DNA of 32,000 nt from an archaeon (GTDB taxonomy: Archaea; Asgardarchaeota; Thorarchaeia; Thorarchaeales; Thorarchaeaceae): contig JAJRZD010000016.1 of assembly GCA_024275415.1 (NCBI GenBank), forward strand, positions 1 to 32,000, given 5' to 3'. Shown one piece after another: positions 5,534 through 13,494 of this stretch (positions within the stretch are counted from its first letter, which is position 1; each line of letters starts with the position of its first letter). The notes under the pieces were generated by a model, which had not been told where the DNA came from, ran no database searches, and saw nothing but the letters and a program-made list of their open reading frames with translations. The translations under genes and the position numbers were made by a program.

Positions 5534-6487
5534 TTACAGACCTAGTGACTGTTTCAAGACCTCGTAGTTGACCTTTCCTGCTTTATGAACCTCTCCTGTC
5601 GTGATGTTGTTGATTGTGATTTCAGCTGGACTGAACAGGAGCGGGTCTACCTTGTAGAAGTCGAACTTGAAACTCTTGAACAGGTCATAGAATGGCTTCC
5701 CGTACTGGTCAGATGATGACGAGGGCGCCTTTTTCGTCAATTCCTCAAGGTCATCGCCTTCGCCAGGACGGATATAGTAGTATGTCTGTCCCGCGTACAG
5801 GATGCAGTCATTTGTCACTCCCATCGCTCTTGTGTCTTTCTTGGCCACAGGTGCAACGGGTGCTACGCCATGGGCATTACGGATTTTCTTGGGGTCGTAC
5901 CCCAACTCATGGAGCTTGTGTACTCCCACCTCGACCACTCGTGCTGAGATCTGGACAGATCCCACCTTGCATGCCGTGGGTGCTACAACACAATAGAGAT
6001 CCTTGGTATCAATACCACACTTCCGTGCGAGCTTGTCGGTGACTCTCTCATCCGGCGGGGTTCTTGTTTCAAGCACAGCAACACCGACGCTTGCATCATC
6101 ATTGTACTCGATTTCCTCATAGAGCTTCTCGACTTTTGCCAGTGCTCTCGCTGGCCCCGAAACCATTGCGAAATACTCCCCAGTCTTGAATGCCCAGCCC
6201 GCATATTGTGACCCGAGAGCTGCAATAGTCGGTTGGTCAGTTGATACGATGACCGAGGGCAATGTTATGCCGTCGATGTCCACAGTGGACATACGAACCG
6301 TGCCGAGTCCTCCCATACACACTTCGCCGACCAGCCTGCCCAGCTCGTCAGTCCCCTCGGTTTCGATTCCAGCATCCAGTATTGTTGCTCCATTCTCCAG
6401 CTGTGAGATGATACAGCCGAGTTCCTCCTTTCGCTCAATTATCTCATCTATTATCTCCTTTGCCTTCTCATTGACACTGACATTCAT
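5534..6487 (-). CDS. mch: Methenyltetrahydromethanopterin cyclohydrolase
   Basis: EVCMGGL, LGSQYAGW, MVSGPARAL, GSVQISARVVEVGVHK, TNDCILYAG, PSSSSDQYGKPF, FYKVDPLLFSPA. Confidence 0.95.
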   Translation of the reverse strand: MNVSVNEKAKEIIDEIIERKEELGCIISQLENGATILDAGIETEGTDELGRLVGEVCMGGLGTVRMSTVDIDGITLPSVIVSTDQPTIAALGSQYAGWAFKTGEYFAMVSGPARALAKVEKLYEEIEYNDDASVGVAVLETRTPPDERVTDKLARKCGIDTKDLYCVVAPTACKVGSVQISARVVEVGVHKLHELGYDPKKIRNAHGVAPVAPVAKKDTRAMGVTNDCILYAGQTYYYIRPGEGDDLEELTKKAPSSSSDQYGKPFYDLFKSFKFDFYKVDPLLFSPAEITINNITTGEVHKAGKVNYEVLKQSLGL

Positions 6488-6502: not shown

Positions 6503-7357
6503 TTAGTGAAGATGCCCATTCTGGGCGGTTCTGACATAGATCTCCTGCTTTGGTGTTCCTTCTGCAAGGTCTCCCATGAACTTGGTCCATTTCTCAGTTA
6601 CGGGGACAGGCTCCTTCAGGAAATCAGGCCTTCGAGACCTCAGATACCTCAGATAGTAGTTTGTGAACTCCCTTTCGGAAACCCCGCTGAAGAGATATGT
6701 CGGCATGAGAGATTCGAGCCTTCCTAGGACGAAGACCATGCCCTTTGTGGCGCTCACGCCTATTCGCTCAGCGACATTCCCGCAGACTATGATGGTGCCT
6801 CCTTTCATCTTGGATGCTGCCAGCTCGTCCACGTTCCCCCTGACCGCGATGAACCCCTTCCGCATATGTGATGCCATCTCCCGCCCCACATTACCAGCCA
6901 CATAGACTCTCCCACCGGACATCCCCTCTATACTCCCTCTATATCCTGCACAAAGGCGGTCTCCGGCATCTCCCTCTATCTGGATGTTCCCTCCTTGCAT
7001 CTCAGCTGCGGCCCATGCCCCTACGGATCCCTTGACATGTATCCTTCCTGCTATCATCTCAGCTCCGAGATACATACCTACATCCCCTTCAACAGTGATC
7101 CTGCCACCGTTCATCCCTTTTCCTATCATCTTCACCTTTCTAAGGTCGCCAGAAACGTGAATCTCGGTAGCATCGGGAGAATCCCCCGTTTCCCCTGACA
7201 CCTCAAAGAAATCGCTAATCTGAAGGGTCTGGTTCCCTTGGATGACAGGTAGCTTCTTGATGTCTGCAAGGGATTTCCCTGCAAAGTGGGATGGTGTGAT
7301 GGTGTCTGCCTCTATGGGCAAGTCCAGCTCTTGGGTAAGGTTCAGTCGCACAGTCAT
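6503..7357 (-). CDS. fwdC: Formylmethanofuran dehydrogenase subunit C
   Basis: PIEADTITP N-terminus, repeated GXGXG beta-helix units (GDVGMYLGAEM, GDAGDRL..GYRG), LMPTY. Confidence 0.9.
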   Translation of the reverse strand: MTVRLNLTQELDLPIEADTITPSHFAGKSLADIKKLPVIQGNQTLQISDFFEVSGETGDSPDATEIHVSGDLRKVKMIGKGMNGGRITVEGDVGMYLGAEMIAGRIHVKGSVGAWAAAEMQGGNIQIEGDAGDRLCAGYRGSIEGMSGGRVYVAGNVGREMASHMRKGFIAVRGNVDELAASKMKGGTIIVCGNVAERIGVSATKGMVFVLGRLESLMPTYLFSGVSEREFTNYYLRYLRSRRPDFLKEPVPVTEKWTKFMGDLAEGTPKQEIYVRTAQNGHLH

Positions 7358-7461: not shown

Positions 7462-8358
7462 ATGGAGATCAATGGCGTCCCCATCGAGGACACGTTCGCT
7501 GAAGCTTTTAGCATGCACATGAACCGTACCCTGATAACAGCGTATGACGAGGAATGGGCCCGCATAACGGCAATGGAAACGACAGGATTCGGGACTTCTG
7601 TCATCATGACCCCGTCCGAAGCAGGCATCGAGTATGTCCTATCGCCCGATGAAACCCCTGATGGACGACCCGGTGTACGTGTGATATTTGCTACAGCAAA
7701 ATCGGACAAACTCGAGAAACAACTTCTTGCACGGATCGGTCAATGCATCCTTACCAGTCCCACTGCCTGCGCATATGATGCAACTCCGAAACCCAAGGAA
7801 ACCTACAAGATTGGGAAACTCATCGCTATGTTCGGCGACGGACACCAGATAAAGAAGGGGCCTATTGACGGCCGTATCCTGTGGCTGGTCCCGCGCATGA
7901 GCGGCACCTTCGTTGTCCAAGAGAGCTTTGGGCGTACAAAAGGAGTTGCCGGCGGGAATATAATTTACTGCTGCAAAGATATCCAGAGCGGAATGGAGAG
8001 TGGCAAGGCTGCCGTCAAGGCGATTGAGAAGGTGGAAGGTGCCTATACACCCTTCCCCGGTGGACTGGTAGGCTCAGGATCGAAACCGTCTTCACGGTAT
8101 AAGGGTATGTTCGCATCCACGAATGAACGCTATTGTCCGACACTCAGGGCAATCACACCCGATACGCTGGTTCCCGAAGGTGCTGAGTTCGTCCAAGAAA
8201 TCGTCATCAACGGGCTGACTGAGGATGCAGTCGCTGAAGCAATGAAAGTGGCAATCCAAGAAGTCTGCAAGCATGATGGCATCCTCACCGTAGGCGCTGG
8301 CAACTATGGCGGGAAACTGGGCAAGTATCAGATCCACCTGCACGAACTGGGTCTCTAG
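7462..8358 (+). CDS. ftr: Formylmethanofuran:tetrahydromethanopterin N-formyltransferase
   Basis: MEINGVPIEDTFAEAF, TGFGTSVIM, TPDGRPG, RIGQCILT.PT, GVAGGN, GNYGGKLG. GGTGA SD upstream. Confidence 0.95.
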   Translation: MEINGVPIEDTFAEAFSMHMNRTLITAYDEEWARITAMETTGFGTSVIMTPSEAGIEYVLSPDETPDGRPGVRVIFATAKSDKLEKQLLARIGQCILTSPTACAYDATPKPKETYKIGKLIAMFGDGHQIKKGPIDGRILWLVPRMSGTFVVQESFGRTKGVAGGNIIYCCKDIQSGMESGKAAVKAIEKVEGAYTPFPGGLVGSGSKPSSRYKGMFASTNERYCPTLRAITPDTLVPEGAEFVQEIVINGLTEDAVAEAMKVAIQEVCKHDGILTVGAGNYGGKLGKYQIHLHELGL

Positions 8359-8419: not shown

Positions 8420-8497
8420 GCCCCTGTAGCTCAGACCGGTTAGACCGCCTCCTTGGTAAGGAGGAAGCCGCGGGTTCAAATCCCGCCAGGGGCTCCA
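8420..8497 (+). tRNA. tRNA-Thr(GGT)
   Basis: Cloverleaf read by hand: acceptor GCCCCTG/CAGGGGC, anticodon arm CCTCC-TTGGTAA-GGAGG (GGT at 8455-8457), T arm GCGGG-TTCAAAT-CCCGC, U73, encoded CCA. Confidence 0.95.
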
Positions 8498-8657
8498 TCG
8501 AGCTTTCTTCTTCGAGTTGCTTCAGACTGATCTGTAGATTCCTATTCTAGGAGCTTATCACTAGATTCTCGTGACTAATAATCGGATTAGATATATCACT
8601 GAGCATGGGATAAATAAAGATGCGTCCATTTTATAGCAACTGATAATTCTCAGGACT

Positions 8658-10982
8658 GTGGGTTTGGTGGGAAACAATCTTGAAACACGGATTCGTGAAG
8701 ACGAATACGAGTCAATGGTGGAACCTGAAAAGAAAAAACTGACCCAAGACGAGATCGAGGAAATTTTCAAGGATGCTACAGACGATTTTTCCGTGTCAGG
8801 ATCTAGTTGCCATATCCTCGGTGACCCAGTTGCAGACTCGGGAGAAGCCAAGGGACATTGTGAAACTTCTTTGCCAAGATTAATTGACAGTTGTGAGAAA
8901 TTCGAACAAGTCCTGAGAATCATCCCCTCTGAAATGCGGCTCAAAAGGGGTTTTGAGAAAAAACTTCGAGATGTTAGAGCCTATTTTAAGAGTAGCATGA
9001 AAGGAGAAATTCCATCATTTATTATCGAGTTAGAGGAGCGATTAATCCGCGCCCTCTATGAGGTGATTCATAGTGGTCCTCCAGAGGTTCAGATCCATTC
9101 AATGAGAGAGGTTCGCGAACTACTAACAAAATATCCCAGAGAAAAAGAGGAAGAAGAATTCAGTGAACGATACAGAAAATCCAGTATCTACTTCAAGGTT
9201 CGAAAAAACAAAACTCACTCCCAAAACGAACTTGCCAAAATTCACGGTATCATTCAAGGGAGAATAAGTGACTTCAAGGCAGGGAAAGAACCAACCTTGA
9301 TTTCTCGGCTACGTCGATATGAGGAAGAAAAAATAATCAGAAAGTGGACGGAAGTAGAACTCGATCGGTTCCAATATAATGAGCTGCTGACTATTCTACG
9401 GAAGCATCAATGTTATAATTTCGGTGAAGTAGCCGTATTGAGAAAGAACACATTGCAAGGAGCCTATGAAGTTACTCCAACGACCTTCCATCTAATGAAT
9501 GAAGATGTCGGCTTTGAGCATATTGAATCCCAGATGTTTTCATCCATTGTATTTACGATGTTGCAAGAACTGGACAAGACCAATTCTAGGATTGTTTATC
9601 TTGATTATGGTAATAATCACTCTGCTTGGCACTCATTACCAGATGAGATGCACAATAAAATTCGGGACGTTATAGAGAATTCAATAAAAGAGAAGACCCA
9701 GATTGCACCCCTCGCTGATAACATCCGAGTTGGTATTGTGGATTGCCGACTGTATATTTGGAATCCCGACAAATCGCCAAATAAAATGATAAACGCTTGG
9801 AGCAATCAGTTCTTCCATTTCACACCAAGTGATCTTTCAGATATCATTCTCGAAACAGGAAAGCAACTGCAACTGAAATGCAGCGGCTATGAACAATTGC
9901 GTCATCTAAACAAACTTGTTAAACAAGTCATTTCCAACAAGGCATCAGATAGGATCCGAGTTGGTGATAAAGGTTCCAGAATCTTAGGTGAGGTACTCCA
10001 TCTAATCTGTGACATCTTAGGGATATCACCAAGGTCTATTGAAGGAACGATTGAAGCTGTTACTGGCAGAAACGGGCGAGGCGGTATTACTCGTCCTAAA
10101 TTACTAGAAGGAATGGAATTGGAGGTTCTTCGCGCAAGACTTGGTGCAATTGTCAATAGCGATTGTTGGTTGGGGCGGAGCGGGCGATTACAATATTCCG
10201 AATCTGATAGAGGGAGAATTAGAATTGTGACAAAATTATTACAGTGCTTTGGAGAGATGTCACCCAAATTGATATCAAATGACGCTAATCGGAGCCTTCG
10301 GATGTGGATACCAATACCGATGGGAAATGCTTTCATCTACTGGGGTTTTACTTCCGGCGAGAAACCACTTCAAAATGAACATCTTCCCAGACTTGTCAAA
10401 GAGAGTTCCCATGAATCACATATTGCTTATCTAGAGGAATTGATTTCAGAAGACGGGTGCTTTGACCATGTGTCAGGTTTCAGATGGAGTCGAACTATCG
10501 TTCTGAAGCCGGGTAAGGATAATGCAAGTTATAATCTCGAATCGGATCTGTGTCAGGCTGATATTGCGTTCCTAATGAATCTCAAATATGCACGATGGGA
10601 AACAAAGAGAGGCCACATCTATATTCCAATAGGTAAGCTATCTGAGCACTCGAAGCATTTAACCGGTCAGGACTTAAGCATCACGAGTCGTATTCTTTCG
10701 GTTGTCCTGACAAATCGAAGTAGACTATTGGATGATGAGGTATCTCTTGCAACTGGGCTAGGGATCACTATAGAAGTATATCCTGAGTGCATAACTATCT
10801 ACACGAAGACAGGTAGAGTCTCTTTAAAGTGGATAGCAAAAACAAAACGAAAAGAAGATGCGATTCGATGGGCGCTTATTGCACTGCCAAATGACGAACG
10901 GAAGCGGGAACGTGTTCGGAAATGGCTTGCGTTGGTTGCAAAAGATGTTGAAAGAATACAGTTCCCATTCTGGCCTGAATAA
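8658..10982 (+). CDS. Large protein with XRE-like HTH and double LAGLIDADG (DOD-type) endonuclease-like domain; no intein splicing motifs
   Basis: HTH SQNELAKIHGIIQGRISDFKAG (~9219-9284). LAGLIDADG-like motifs LGAIVNSDC (10140-10166) and LEELISEDG (10431-10457) are 97 aa apart, with the intein-endonuclease-like linker GEKPLQNEHLPRLV..S.E..IAYL. Start codon uncertain. Confidence 0.7.
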   Translation: MGLVGNNLETRIREDEYESMVEPEKKKLTQDEIEEIFKDATDDFSVSGSSCHILGDPVADSGEAKGHCETSLPRLIDSCEKFEQVLRIIPSEMRLKRGFEKKLRDVRAYFKSSMKGEIPSFIIELEERLIRALYEVIHSGPPEVQIHSMREVRELLTKYPREKEEEEFSERYRKSSIYFKVRKNKTHSQNELAKIHGIIQGRISDFKAGKEPTLISRLRRYEEEKIIRKWTEVELDRFQYNELLTILRKHQCYNFGEVAVLRKNTLQGAYEVTPTTFHLMNEDVGFEHIESQMFSSIVFTMLQELDKTNSRIVYLDYGNNHSAWHSLPDEMHNKIRDVIENSIKEKTQIAPLADNIRVGIVDCRLYIWNPDKSPNKMINAWSNQFFHFTPSDLSDIILETGKQLQLKCSGYEQLRHLNKLVKQVISNKASDRIRVGDKGSRILGEVLHLICDILGISPRSIEGTIEAVTGRNGRGGITRPKLLEGMELEVLRARLGAIVNSDCWLGRSGRLQYSESDRGRIRIVTKLLQCFGEMSPKLISNDANRSLRMWIPIPMGNAFIYWGFTSGEKPLQNEHLPRLVKESSHESHIAYLEELISEDGCFDHVSGFRWSRTIVLKPGKDNASYNLESDLCQADIAFLMNLKYARWETKRGHIYIPIGKLSEHSKHLTGQDLSITSRILSVVLTNRSRLLDDEVSLATGLGITIEVYPECITIYTKTGRVSLKWIAKTKRKEDAIRWALIALPNDERKRERVRKWLALVAKDVERIQFPFWPE

Positions 10983-11167
10983 ATCAAGTATGACTTGAAT
11001 CTTGAAAAGAGTAGCTGGAATTTTGGATATCGTAAACGAGAATTTCATTACAATCAATATGAAATATTCTCTCCTATTGCGAAGCGATGCCAAGGGGCAT
11101 TTCAAATCAAATTCCTCTGGCAACTGGTTCTCTACTAGTATTCCTTTGTTTCAGTAGAATATTCAGA

Positions 11168-11392
11168 TCATATTATGCATGAATTGAAGACCTTTCCTAG
11201 AATATACTCTAACGGCCAAAATCCTACAATCAAAGAATTACGCACTGTTCGTAATTGGCTTTGTGGAAAATATGGTTTCCCTAGTTCAATTTCCTCGGGG
11301 TTTCCACTTTCTACTTCTTGCTTAAGATTGGAATCCCTTATCATCGTAAAAAAAAGAAGTAACTCTCTCCCAAGATATAATCCGGTAGTCAT
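11168..11392 (-). pseudogene. Possible decayed ORF remnant within island
   Basis: Short open fragments interrupted by stops in an AT-rich region. No recognisable family. Confidence 0.2.
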
Positions 11393-11442
11393 CGTCAGTC
11401 ATATTTACGCCTTAGTTCAATTAGAGCCATTATTCCTATGAT

Positions 11443-12064
11443 TCAAATCGCTGAGGTAATGGTGACGGTTTCTGTTCTATTAATCCCACCTGAGAATTCC
11501 CTTACACTGAAATCAACAACCAATTCACTTACAAAATCATCCTTTGGGATCCTCTCAGAGGTAAGGTTGAATGTCCATAAGATCCGAAACTGTTGTGGTT
11601 CTTCTCCTCCCGTGATATGACTATAGCTTGAATTCATTAGCCAATATTGCATCATTATGAATCCTGGTGATTCATCATGTTTTCGCATCCATGCATGTGA
11701 AATGCCTTTGCCCTATGGATTCAAAAGCAACCGATTCGTTAATAGCGTAGTGACCATTTCCTAAATAATATCTAGGTATTAATTTGAAAGAAATGTTTTG
11801 ATGAGCATATATTCTTGTATAGTTCATCTGAAACGAAAAAAGAAACCAGAATGAATCGTTTGTTTCGGAAAAAGTGATATCAAATTTCCCAAATGTAATG
11901 TTCTCAATGATTCGAATTGAACTGCTATTTCTACATTCAATAGTGAAATGATAGTTAATATCAGTGTATTGCGATTGAACGAAGAAAAAGGTGAAGACTG
12001 TACTAATAGTTAGGAGAATGATGATAACAATTGCAGTTATCTTCGGTCGAACTGGAACTGACAT
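11443..12064 (-). pseudogene. Frameshifted membrane-anchored, N-glycosylated surface protein
   Basis: Overlapping ORFs 11675-12064 (N-terminal TM anchor) and 11443-11688. Deleting one base of the CCC run at 11711-11713 fuses them (..ESIGKGISHAWMRKHDESPG..). Nine N-x-S/T sequons. Confidence 0.5.
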
Positions 12065-12428
12065 CTATCTCCCTCTCCGATGTTCTAGGCATGCCACACC
12101 ACATAAAGGTCATATTATCTCTTTTTGGTTACGGTAGGAGGGAGATGGAAGTTTCATAAAAAACAAGAAGGCTGTTCAATTTCTACTCTGCATCATGGCA
12201 ATGATACTATTGCTACAAGGATACAACTCAGACATTGGATTTTTGTCTTTACTCGCTCTACGATATTCCTTTTGGTTCTAGCAAAATCTTGATTTTGTGA
12301 ATACCATGCAGGTATGGTCCAGTGAGTGATAATCAAGGCACATCATGAACCGGAACCTTCCTGTTCATTGACATGTGTTCTTCCTATTTTGTTCTCATTT
12401 TCATCTACACTTTTGATGTCAGATAGTA

Positions 12429-12462
12429 TCAAACCCCGCCAGGGTCTCCATCGTGTTTTCTT
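12429..12462 (+). repeat. Degenerate duplicate of tRNA-Thr 3' end and downstream T-tract (attR-like)
   Basis: TCAAACCCCGCCAGGGTCTCCATCGTGTTTTCTT versus TCAAATCCCGCCAGGGGCTCCATCGAGCTTTCTT at 8476-8509. Confidence 0.8.
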
Positions 12463-12495
12463 TTCAGAGGTGTATATCATAATCGAGTGATGCTT

Positions 12496-12723
12496 TCACC
12501 AGCCCATCTGTCGTCTTCGCGACATGGCTTCTGCGTACTCTTGTGATTCTCCGTCGAAGTACATGTTCTCTTCGACAATAGACTGATGTATCTTCTCGCC
12601 AATCCTCCTTCTACCTACCTTGTATGAATGATGCGTTCCATGCTCAGTTCTCTTATCGCGGCTGAACAGGACTGCTAATAGGATCACGCCGCCAAACAGT
12701 ATGAACAGGTATATCCCTAACAT
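12496..12723 (-). CDS. Small single-pass membrane protein, hypothetical
   Basis: N-terminal hydrophobic helix. The ATG at 12723 is preceded by GGAGTG. Confidence 0.55.
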   Translation of the reverse strand: MLGIYLFILFGGVILLAVLFSRDKRTEHGTHHSYKVGRRRIGEKIHQSIVEENMYFDGESQEYAEAMSRRRQMGW

Positions 12724-12945: not shown

Positions 12946-13434
12946 CTATTCTGCCCCCACCCAGTCAGGGGACAAACGCAACCTACAGACCAGTTCTTTT
13001 CCATGAGTGTATTTCTCATCAGAATCAAGATATTCTTGTAGTTTCTCGATGAAAAGTTTCATCGTAGAGGGATTCACGCTGATGCCGACCTCGAAACCAT
13101 CGAGAATGAACGGCTCGTTATCCATTGCATCCAACCCTATGCGAACCACAAGTTGATCCAGCCATCGGATGGTCGCACCGTGTTCTTTCCCGTATGTTAC
13201 ATGATCAAAGTCCGTAGGGGGATTGCACTTGTATTTCTTGGTTCCCTTACCATAGATTTGGAAGACATCTAGCAGTCGTTGAAGGCTATCTTTTATCGTC
13301 TGTAGCGACTCATCGTCTCCCATAATATAGACTTCATCTCTCCACTTGCCGCTCTGTTCGTCCTTGACCTGCCAGATTTGGAAATTCAGGTCATCAAACA
13401 CTTTCTTGTCCGTGCTGGAAGTCATATCATTCAT
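12946..13434 (-). CDS. Hypothetical protein
   Basis: Globular-looking ORF, third gene of a tightly spaced minus-strand run. AGAGGA precedes the ATG at 13434 (or 13425). Confidence 0.65.
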   Translation of the reverse strand: MNDMTSSTDKKVFDDLNFQIWQVKDEQSGKWRDEVYIMGDDESLQTIKDSLQRLLDVFQIYGKGTKKYKCNPPTDFDHVTYGKEHGATIRWLDQLVVRIGLDAMDNEPFILDGFEVGISVNPSTMKLFIEKLQEYLDSDEKYTHGKELVCRLRLSPDWVGAE

Positions 13435-13494
13435 TCCTCTCTTTGCTGAAATGAGAATGTTCCTGCGATACCTTATGTCTGAAAGGTCATCCAC

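Follow-up and report, generated by a model that had tools for sequence, protein, structure and literature searches.

The stretch of Thorarchaeaceae DNA analysed here (the window, 32,000 nucleotides, positions 1 to 32,000 of contig JAJRZD010000016.1) carries at 8658-10982, on the forward strand, an open reading frame whose 774-aa product, P0001, combines a probable helix-turn-helix (HTH) region with a predicted double-LAGLIDADG domain; translation could instead begin at a GTG at 8667, yielding the 771-aa form known from the database. The sequence TTTATA at 8630-8635 may be a TATA box, and the transcript is predicted to begin almost without a leader. The start codon lies 161 bp past a tRNA-Thr(GGT) gene (8420-8497, forward strand, called by ARAGORN), and in a congener, G001, its sister starts 155 bp past the same tRNA. 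That tRNA forms the left border of a low-GC variable segment, or "island", of about 4 kb (8498-12472), delimited by its GC content (0.36-0.43 versus 0.48-0.53 in the flanks) and by comparison with an empty site, i.e., congener G006, which lacks the segment and in which tRNA-Thr is followed by 424 bp and then by the homologue of the gene at 12946-13494. The last 22 nt of the tRNA and the next 22 nt (8476-8519) constitute the left copy of a direct repeat whose right copy, a degenerate version of the tRNA 3' end found by repeat and pattern searches, lies at the right border of the segment (12429-12472), and the conserved flanking gene picks up again at 12496. The two copies agree at 82% over 44 nt, with 20 of 22 positions matching in the tRNA part, and the pattern search of the locus yielded exactly these two.

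The other sizeable ORF of the segment (11675-12064, reverse strand) encodes a 129-aa protein with an N-terminal membrane anchor and no Pfam match; since it covers only the N-terminal half of its G006 homologues (232-240 aa, 32% identity), it looks truncated and is probably a remnant, and it was thus essentially right to present P0001, as the preliminary description did, as the product of the sole intact gene of the island. As to the marks of a tRNA-integrated element, the direct repeat of the tRNA 3' end is present at the far border, and an integrase or recombinase gene was not found, none of the remaining ORFs of at least 80 aa having any Pfam match. Besides the nuclease gene the segment holds 1.45 kb of unrelated DNA, and its right half, 3' of that gene, differs between the window and G001. 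In G003 the tRNA-Thr island is filled by an SBF transporter gene, which in G001 lies after the nuclease gene; the window contains no trace of it. The earlier picture of a variable segment beside tRNA-Thr, with a partial tRNA 3' repeat and no integrase found, is therefore supported, the empty site of G006 included, and the segment is better read as an old, decayed insertion or a variable hot spot at tRNA-Thr in which the P0001 gene is a passenger or resident. That P0001 was itself the agent that moved the segment is not supported.

Alternatively, the gene could be cargo left over from an integrated element, such as a virus or plasmid, that has otherwise decayed, playing no part in the cell today and simply not yet degraded, a proposal that would account for the low GC of the segment, the tRNA 3' repeat, the missing integrase beside a truncated-looking ORF, and the empty site in a relative. 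What makes this very unlikely is the state of the gene itself: its frame is intact in the window (774 codons) and in G001 (768 aa) at 55% identity between the two, and every residue that is invariant across the family is retained. The dN/dS of the pair is about 0.13 over the whole gene and about 0.05 over the nuclease half, values that are rough because dS is saturated, and on this comparison the gene appears to be under purifying selection in both congeneric genomes.

An AF2 model of aa 425-774 (pLDDT 89.6) displays the architecture that defines the LAGLIDADG (DOD) superfamily, i.e., two alpha-beta-beta-alpha-beta-beta-alpha half-domains packed via their LAGLIDADG helices, in a monomeric core spanning aa 485-756 (10110-10925, forward strand, as are all coordinates within the gene), with a large helical/beta insertion in the second half-domain. 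Foldseek searches of the PDB with this model gave a best E of 1.8e-7, and every match at E <1e-3 was a LAGLIDADG protein. The top match in VIA-align was the endonuclease domain of the Tli VMA intein (Z 18.1, 187 aligned residues, rmsd 2.5), followed by PI-PfuI (Z 17.5), I-Tsp061I (16.8), WhiA (16.3) and I-DmoI (15.7), and the LAGLIDADG enzymes overall matched at Z of about 15-18 and rmsd 2.1-3.0 over 160-190 residues. Structure prediction had been put forward as a check of the fold, and it returned LAGLIDADG proteins only. The sequence databases were far less forthcoming: Pfam and NCBIfam gave nothing for P0001 at E up to 1, no Pfam family matched the LAGLIDADG region of 19 relatives at E up to 1, the PDB gave no matches when searched by sequence or by profile, and PADLOC offered no annotation for the nuclease, while three relatives in AFDB bear the automatic name "DOD-type homing endonuclease domain". 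As no curated sequence model detects the domain, its assignment rests on the predicted structure and the positions of the motifs.

Those motifs are RLGAIVNSDC (aa 494-503, 10137-10166) and YLEELISEDG (aa 591-600, 10428-10457), and their acidic residues, D502 (codon 10161-10163) and D599 (codon 10452-10454), are 97 aa apart; in the model each closes a long helix at its C-terminus, and a beta-strand follows directly. Position 502 is D in 165 of 166 family representatives, and position 599 is acidic in all 165 (D in 126, E in 39). Two lysines are nearly as constant, K569 being K or R in 164 of 165 representatives and K749 being K in 158 of 160. The first of these (codon 10362-10364) belongs to a Block-D-like linker in GEKPLQNEHLPRLVKESSHESHIAYL that comprises K569, L576-P577, V580, S583/584, E586 and Y591-L592. 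Both the spacing and acidic ends of the helices and the likeness of the linker to those of intein endonucleases had been recognised from the sequence of the window and are confirmed in P0001. On the evidence of model and alignment together, P0001 is predicted to end in a homing-endonuclease-type double-LAGLIDADG nuclease domain with intact active-site residues.

The region ahead of the nuclease is harder to place. A helical domain at aa 142-226 (9081-9335; AF2 pLDDT >90 throughout) contains a probable HTH with its core at about aa 189-207, to which several faint signals point: HipB/XRE-type matches at aa 181-217 with E of about 0.1 at best, Pfam HTH_3 matches in 5 of 19 relatives (best E 5e-4), and structural matches to the HTH domains of sigma-r4, LuxR and IstA at Z of only about 4. 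The model of aa 85-430 matched no known structure significantly (Foldseek E 0.13 and VIA-wide Z 4.6 at best), so this weak HTH signal is all that can be claimed, and the XRE-like HTH originally described survives in that weaker form, as a probable HTH. A middle alpha/beta domain follows at aa 267-372 (9456-9773), with an invariant W368 and likewise no significant structural match (best Z 4.6). Just ahead of the first LAGLIDADG helix lies a conserved Gly-rich motif, TGRNGRGGITRPKLL (aa 466-480, 10053-10097), in which G470, G473, G476 and P480 are invariant in a 19-sequence alignment and P480 is retained in 159 of 165 representatives. Pfam, NCBIfam and structural searches matched no host protein family anywhere in the N-terminal 480 aa.

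With the archaeal enzyme I-DmoI, and with I-Tsp061I, PI-PfuI, the Tli and Pho VMA inteins and PI-SceI, P0001 shares the same pseudo-symmetric double LAGLIDADG fold, an acidic end on each LAGLIDADG helix and a Block-D-type lysine between the motifs. It differs in its size (774 aa versus about 180-200 aa for free LAGLIDADG enzymes), and, compared with the archaeal LAGLIDADG enzymes, in some 480 additional N-terminal residues (HTH region, alpha/beta domain and Gly-rich motif), in the insertion in its second half-domain, in being missed by the sequence models of known families, and in the pairing of its relatives with a membrane ATPase at half of their loci. It is not an intein, in agreement with the earlier reading of its missing splicing motifs: there is no Hint domain, the alignments to inteins span the endonuclease domain only (for example 7qsu residues 141-329), and the protein ends in FPFWPE, without a C-terminal His-Asn. 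Nor does it lie in an intron, the gene being free-standing and interrupting no host gene. In these respects it recalls the HO endonuclease of yeast, a LAGLIDADG nuclease that likewise stands free, has gained a DNA-binding module and acts at a chromosomal site rather than in intron homing. HO has retained Hint remnants and carries a C-terminal zinc-finger region, whereas no Hint remnant was detected in P0001 and its extra module is the N-terminal HTH region.

A different precedent is WhiA, a bacterial regulator of sporulation and cell division that has lost the catalytic acidic residues and is proof that the LAGLIDADG fold can serve purely as a DNA-binding scaffold. P0001 resembles it in joining a LAGLIDADG scaffold and an HTH in one free-standing protein, and WhiA is among its top structural matches; a domesticated, non-cutting regulator, with HTH and scaffold recognising promoters or other sites and the acidic residues kept for structure or metal binding, would also suit a gene that is a stable resident under purifying selection in two genomes. 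We nonetheless think a regulator of this kind rather unlikely. Domestication of the WhiA type accompanies loss of the catalytic acidic residues, yet in the P0001 family both acidic positions and the two lysines are near-invariant over 166 divergent representatives; the domain order is reversed (in WhiA the LAGLIDADG part comes first and the HTH last); and intein and intron endonucleases outscore WhiA structurally.

The relatives of P0001 amount to 442 clusters at 50% identity, and the named records are all Thor-, Hermod- or Promethearchaeota, so that among the records found here the family is confined to Asgard archaea. The proposal that P0001 represents an uncharacterised family of large archaeal proteins was well founded, as the double-LAGLIDADG fold is genuine and the active site is conserved: in the literature found, the family is undescribed, no paper combining "LAGLIDADG" with "HerA" or "Asgard" treats it, and a 2026 paper on the Asgard defensome mentions neither HerA nor LAGLIDADG. 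Up to eight matches occur per genome and distribution within the genus is patchy, features that, together with the intact catalytic residues, would be expected of a free-standing homing endonuclease gene, i.e., one that cuts the empty 3' flank of tRNA-Thr and copies itself and neighbouring DNA by break repair. The near-equal distances from tRNA-Thr in the window and G001 and the empty site of G006 fit such a gene, as does the relative at locus L005, where a tRNA-Ala begins 4 bp past the nuclease stop codon.

A wider survey of loci makes homing unlikely. A tRNA lies within 1 kb at only a few of about 22 distinct genome loci, namely the window and its sister (tRNA-Thr), L005, and L025, where a tRNA-Met is 961 bp away, and at none of 23 further metagenome loci, making about three independent cases in about 45 loci; at L014:5305-5326 BLAST pointed to a tRNA-like fragment of 22 nt, which failed on alignment and was dropped. 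Adjacency to tRNA genes is not a trait of the family, and the expected enrichment beside tRNA genes did not appear among the homologues; the suggestion that these proteins cut at or near tRNA genes and mobilise cargo is not supported. Within the 4 kb segment, the unrelated DNA and the tRNA 3' direct repeat point to site-specific integration rather than homing, and the DNA downstream of the gene is not common to the window and G001. In the tree the copies of the window and G001, both lone, form a sister pair (support 100/100) within a clade that carries the operon (97/96). At the DNA level they diverge about as much (67%) as the flanking genes do (72%), a pattern that fits inheritance and not repeated homing. 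No relatives were found on the viral contigs of IMG/VR with the patterns used, and half of the family has an ATPase gene to which the nuclease gene is translationally coupled.

This coupling is the hallmark of the family: at about 15 of some 31 loci with enough flanking sequence, i.e., about half, a gene for a HerA/VirB4-like ATPase stands directly upstream of the nuclease gene in a tight operon, the ends of the two genes overlapping. The ATPase matches Pfam DUF87, PADLOC mad8/HerA and NCBIfam CedD/HerA, all below the family cut-offs, and in the ESM Atlas it matches DUF87/HerA-type clusters only. In the clade closest to P0001 the gene order is g1-g2-g3-ATPase-nuclease, with g1-g3 encoding membrane proteins (g3 has only sub-threshold matches in the ESM Atlas) and the ATPase itself carrying 2-5 N-terminal TM helices. 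Across 41 related genomes the ATPase and nuclease have near-identical presence and absence, and complete cassettes in L015 and L067 lie 3' of ftr, like the window gene. Unrelated large proteins sometimes take the place of the nuclease behind the ATPase, so the partnership is not obligatory, and in some cassettes that place is occupied by a multi-HTH protein without a nuclease domain, a substitution that speaks for a regulatory role of the WhiA type.

Nucleases and other effectors partnered with HerA are known: HerA-NurA acts in end resection, and SIR2-HerA and DUF4297-HerA are anti-phage systems. The relatives of P0001 are comparable in that their nuclease gene is translationally coupled to one for a HerA-superfamily ATPase. 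They differ in that the partner is a LAGLIDADG protein, a pairing not treated in any paper found that has both "LAGLIDADG" and "HerA", and in that the window copy has no ATPase neighbour. The ATPase of the relatives has the CedD layout, in which an unknown N-terminal domain comes after N-terminal TM helices (bioRxiv 10.1101/2024.09.27.615246), and, as with translocases of the VirB4/CedB/CedD type, its gene is preceded by those of small and polytopic membrane proteins, although it scores far under every curated HerA or CedD cut-off.

None of this apparatus accompanies P0001 itself. A tblastn search found no ATPase homologue in the 32 kb window and no remnants of the ATPase, the small downstream protein C, g1-g3 or g6, and the only clear ATPase of the host genome is on another contig (C10), adjoining its own nuclease paralogue, which is 30% identical to P0001. 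With moderate confidence we favour P0001 as a lone retained member of an ATPase-linked Asgard nuclease family, a sequence-specific DNA endonuclease and a passenger or resident of its segment. In the mechanism proposed, the N-terminal helical HTH region and the saddle of the monomeric double-LAGLIDADG domain would bind DNA, and D502 and D599, flanked by the conserved K569 and K749, would act as metal ligands in the cleavage of both strands. The operon of nuclease, ATPase and membrane proteins suggests that in the complete module a motor translocates DNA at the membrane and is coupled to a nuclease, an arrangement that might serve in defence against incoming DNA or in DNA transfer. On this view the lone state of the window copy would be derived, the ATPase and membrane genes having been lost and the nuclease kept intact; with no ATPase at about half of all loci, though, standing alone may be an ordinary autonomous condition and not a vestige of the operon. 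Catalytic activity, DNA specificity and biological role are inferred, and most likely the window copy still acts as an autonomous DNA-binding nuclease.

A bolder proposal, and in our view a fairly improbable one, assigns the family to an apparatus that translocates DNA at the membrane, known to date from Asgard archaea alone, with the nuclease processing the DNA. The machine, resembling Ced or type IV secretion, would be built from small TM proteins, one polytopic membrane protein and a HerA/VirB4-like ATPase anchored by TM helices. Its nuclease would do the work of a relaxase on a LAGLIDADG basis, or else act at the membrane against invaders; lone copies would be autonomous site-specific cutters, their breaks causing the gains, losses and inversion observed near tRNA-Thr in the genus.

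LAGLIDADG enzymes are familiar as homing nucleases, small and selfish, and as maturases of introns; WhiA adds a transcription factor in which the enzyme has been disarmed. A large LAGLIDADG protein with an intact active site and an HTH region, wired repeatedly to a membrane-anchored HerA/VirB4-like motor, would be a new use of the fold, and its nuclease scaffold, with the long recognition site such a domain would have, could interest genome engineers. For the tRNA-Thr locus, the idea of an integrase-free, nuclease-driven island is corrected, the P0001 gene being better read as a retained orphan in an old variable hot spot. Its family has split into hundreds of lineages within the archaeal group nearest to eukaryotes, and, if its complete module is one of defence or DNA transfer, it would supply a missing piece of the biology of the Asgard mobilome and defensome.

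The 774-aa product of the ORF at 8658-10982 (+) was recognised by no model in Pfam or NCBIfam, and searches of solved structures by sequence and family profiles gave no match except a marginal HipB-type helix-turn-helix (HTH). Structure prediction for aa 425-774, aligned with 18 relatives, produced a model (pLDDT 89.6, pTM 0.89) whose Foldseek matches in the PDB with E < 1e-3 were all LAGLIDADG proteins, and VIA-align comparisons gave Z scores of 18.1 to the endonuclease domain of the Tli VMA intein (187 residues, rmsd 2.5), 17.5 to PI-PfuI, 16.8 to I-Tsp061I, 16.3 to WhiA and 15.7 to I-DmoI. The observation made in the preliminary description was confirmed, and its interpretation was supported as to the fold and the absence of intein and intron features, the intein alignments covering the endonuclease domain and never the Hint domain. 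Both LAGLIDADG motifs, RLGAIVNSDC (aa 494-503) and YLEELISEDG (aa 591-600), form the ends of long helices in the model and are directly followed by a strand, with D502 and D599 spaced 97 residues apart. Among 166 representatives of no more than about 50% pairwise identity, D502 was D in 165/166, position 599 was D or E in 165/165, K569 (the Block-D position) was K or R in 164/165 and K749 was K in 158/160, as expected where selection acts on the active site of an enzyme. That the protein is instead a WhiA-like, non-cutting regulator is unlikely, as the near-invariance of these four positions is the opposite of the conservation known for WhiA.

An HTH in the N-terminal half was weakly indicated, if consistently across methods: HipB/XRE matches at aa 181-217 had an E of about 0.1, Pfam HTH_3 matched 5 of 19 relatives, and structural matches to the HTH domains of sigma-r4, LuxR and IstA reached a Z of about 4 only. 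The model of aa 85-430 (pLDDT 82.6), mostly helical and then an alpha/beta domain, had no significant structural match in the PDB. Directly before the first LAGLIDADG helix lies a strongly conserved glycine-rich motif, TGxNGxGGIxxP (aa 466-480, window 10053-10097), for which no counterpart was identified in known LAGLIDADG enzymes. The novelty claimed for the family was borne out. A word-indexed search gave 20 relatives, all named merely Thorarchaeota hypothetical proteins. Three relatives in AlphaFold DB (TM 0.87-0.89) were automatically labelled "DOD-type homing endonuclease domain" or left unnamed, so the domain is not wholly invisible to existing profiles. An exhaustive profile search retrieved 442 clusters at 50% identity (234 with E < 1e-30), with a conserved C-terminal block of ~500 residues, variable N-termini and a length range of about 190-1600 aa. 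Named matches in genome collections were all Thor-, Hermod- or Promethearchaeota, and no relatives were found in IMG/VR. Matches occurred in 18 of 41 related genomes, with at most eight per genome, and several near-complete congeners had none.

In the window, the gene follows three methanopterin-pathway genes with family names taken from the syntenic locus, i.e., MCH-like (5534-6487), GXGXG/FwdC-like (6503-7357) and ftr (7462-8358), and starts 161 bp downstream of a tRNA-Thr(GGT) (8420-8497), the single tRNA called there by ARAGORN. GC content is 0.48-0.53 in the flanks but 0.36-0.43 from about 8500 to about 12500. A stretch made up of the 22 nt at the 3' end of the tRNA and the 22 nt that follow (8476-8519) recurs as a direct repeat at 12429-12472 (82% identity), in keeping with the earlier placement of the gene in a ~4 kb segment with a degenerate tRNA 3' repeat at its borders. 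The remaining ORFs of at least 80 aa included none resembling an integrase. The 1.45 kb tract on the right of the gene, which the congener G001 does not share, holds only an ORF of 129 aa (11675-12064, -) whose product has an N-terminal membrane anchor; homology extends no further than the N-terminal half of 232-240 aa proteins of the congener G006, so that a truncated gene within the variable segment is probable.

No two of the congeners examined have the same arrangement at the tRNA-Thr locus, which is thus a variable hot spot in the genus. G006 has an empty site, with 424 bp from the tRNA to the homologue of the window gene at 12946-13494; in G003 the tRNA and a further partial tRNA 3' copy enclose a sodium/bile-acid-family (SBF) transporter gene (L060:3304-4877); and G001 has tRNA-Thr, nuclease gene and the orthologous SBF gene in that order (L014:1397-6280). 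With the flanking gene as reference, this whole G001 block is inverted, and a partial tRNA 3' copy, also inverted, lies nearby (L014:1397-1429). These features fit an old, decayed site-specific insertion rather than precise homing, which makes it quite unlikely that the window gene is a true homing gene. The proposal that the nuclease mobilises cargo was not supported. The tRNA-Thr of a further related genome, G004 (L050:1444-1555), has about 32 extra nt inserted between the anticodon and T arms, and that of G003 (G003:C138:4776-4877) was missed by ARAGORN; these may be non-canonical introns. Targeting of tRNA genes was not supported either. Besides the window/G001 pair, a tRNA was found within 1 kb at only two loci (L005, tRNA-Ala 4 bp after the nuclease stop; L025, tRNA-Met 961 bp upstream of the nuclease gene) and, by ARAGORN, at 0 of 23 metagenome loci, counts that are lower bounds since the G003 tRNA was missed. 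Three cases in 45 loci, against roughly one expected by chance (assuming about 46 tRNAs in 3.5 Mb), are at most a mild excess, like that of variable regions in general.

Clustering of the ORFs of about 40 loci revealed, in 14 of them, a large same-strand gene immediately upstream of the nuclease gene and often overlapping its start; in a more distant subclade, a 200-280 aa gene lies immediately downstream. The upstream product is, judged by its sequence, a HerA/FtsK-superfamily ATPase, with matches to Pfam DUF87, to PADLOC mad8 (down to 4.7e-17) and HerA, and to the CedD and HerA models of NCBIfam, the NCBIfam scores all being far below curated cut-offs. It was present in about 15 and absent from about 16 distinct loci with enough upstream flank, and across 41 genomes its phyletic pattern was almost identical to that of the nuclease. 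The nearest clade to the window protein (L015, L065/66, L067 and L068; 47-50% identity) has an operon that begins with the membrane-protein genes g1, g2 and g3 (products of about 105, 210 and 270 aa), followed by genes for a HerA/VirB4-like ATPase with a TM anchor and for the nuclease. The five-gene operon is conserved at L067:1172-7959 and L065:1441-8316, and also in L015, L068 and L100. It is reminiscent, in its layout, of DNA translocation machinery of the Ced or type IV secretion-like kind, and in most loci the ATPase has 2-5 N-terminal TM segments, a layout shared with that described for CedD, the DNA-import ATPase of Sulfolobales (bioRxiv 10.1101/2024.09.27.615246). A few cassettes have unrelated large proteins or a multi-HTH protein directly after the ATPase (L100:7907-11167, L099:3036-7618 and L101:833-3601, in G020, G003 and G011), so the ATPase seems to take interchangeable DNA-binding partners; one of these proteins, of 923 aa, combines several HTH domains of the sigma-r4 type with a weak TnsD-like match. 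The gene after the L065 nuclease (L065:8400-9416) has a weak, below cut-off match to AbiTii, an abortive-infection protein (PADLOC 2.6e-6, Pfam 1.3e-4), which hints at a defence-island neighbourhood. Single contigs also carry tandem or closely spaced family copies: L039:3-7814 (nuclease and small protein, then ATPase and nuclease), L027:5292-12304 (two lone nucleases, 3.5 kb apart) and L085:2-7002.

In the window, tblastn detected nothing of the ATPase, g1-g3 or g6, nor of the small protein encoded downstream, and the one clear ATPase of the host genome, on contig C10, adjoins its own nuclease paralogue, only 30% identical to the window copy. A maximum-likelihood tree built on the nuclease domain placed the window and G001 copies as sisters (100/100) nested in a clade (97/96) in which every other member has the full operon; elsewhere in the tree, lone copies were scattered. 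The complete cassettes of L015 and L067 lie, like the window gene, on the 3' side of ftr, which suggests an old resident locus that has since been reduced. Identity between the window and G001 copies is 55% over the whole protein and 64% over the nuclease domain, and dN/dS is about 0.13 for the full length against 0.05 for the C-terminal half (dS being saturated), so that selection maintains the orphan, and a functionless relic is very improbable. On balance, we lean towards the window protein being a putative active, autonomous HTH-LAGLIDADG endonuclease, a derived orphan of an Asgard membrane-ATPase/nuclease module, for which, in its complete form, defence against incoming DNA or DNA movement are candidate roles.
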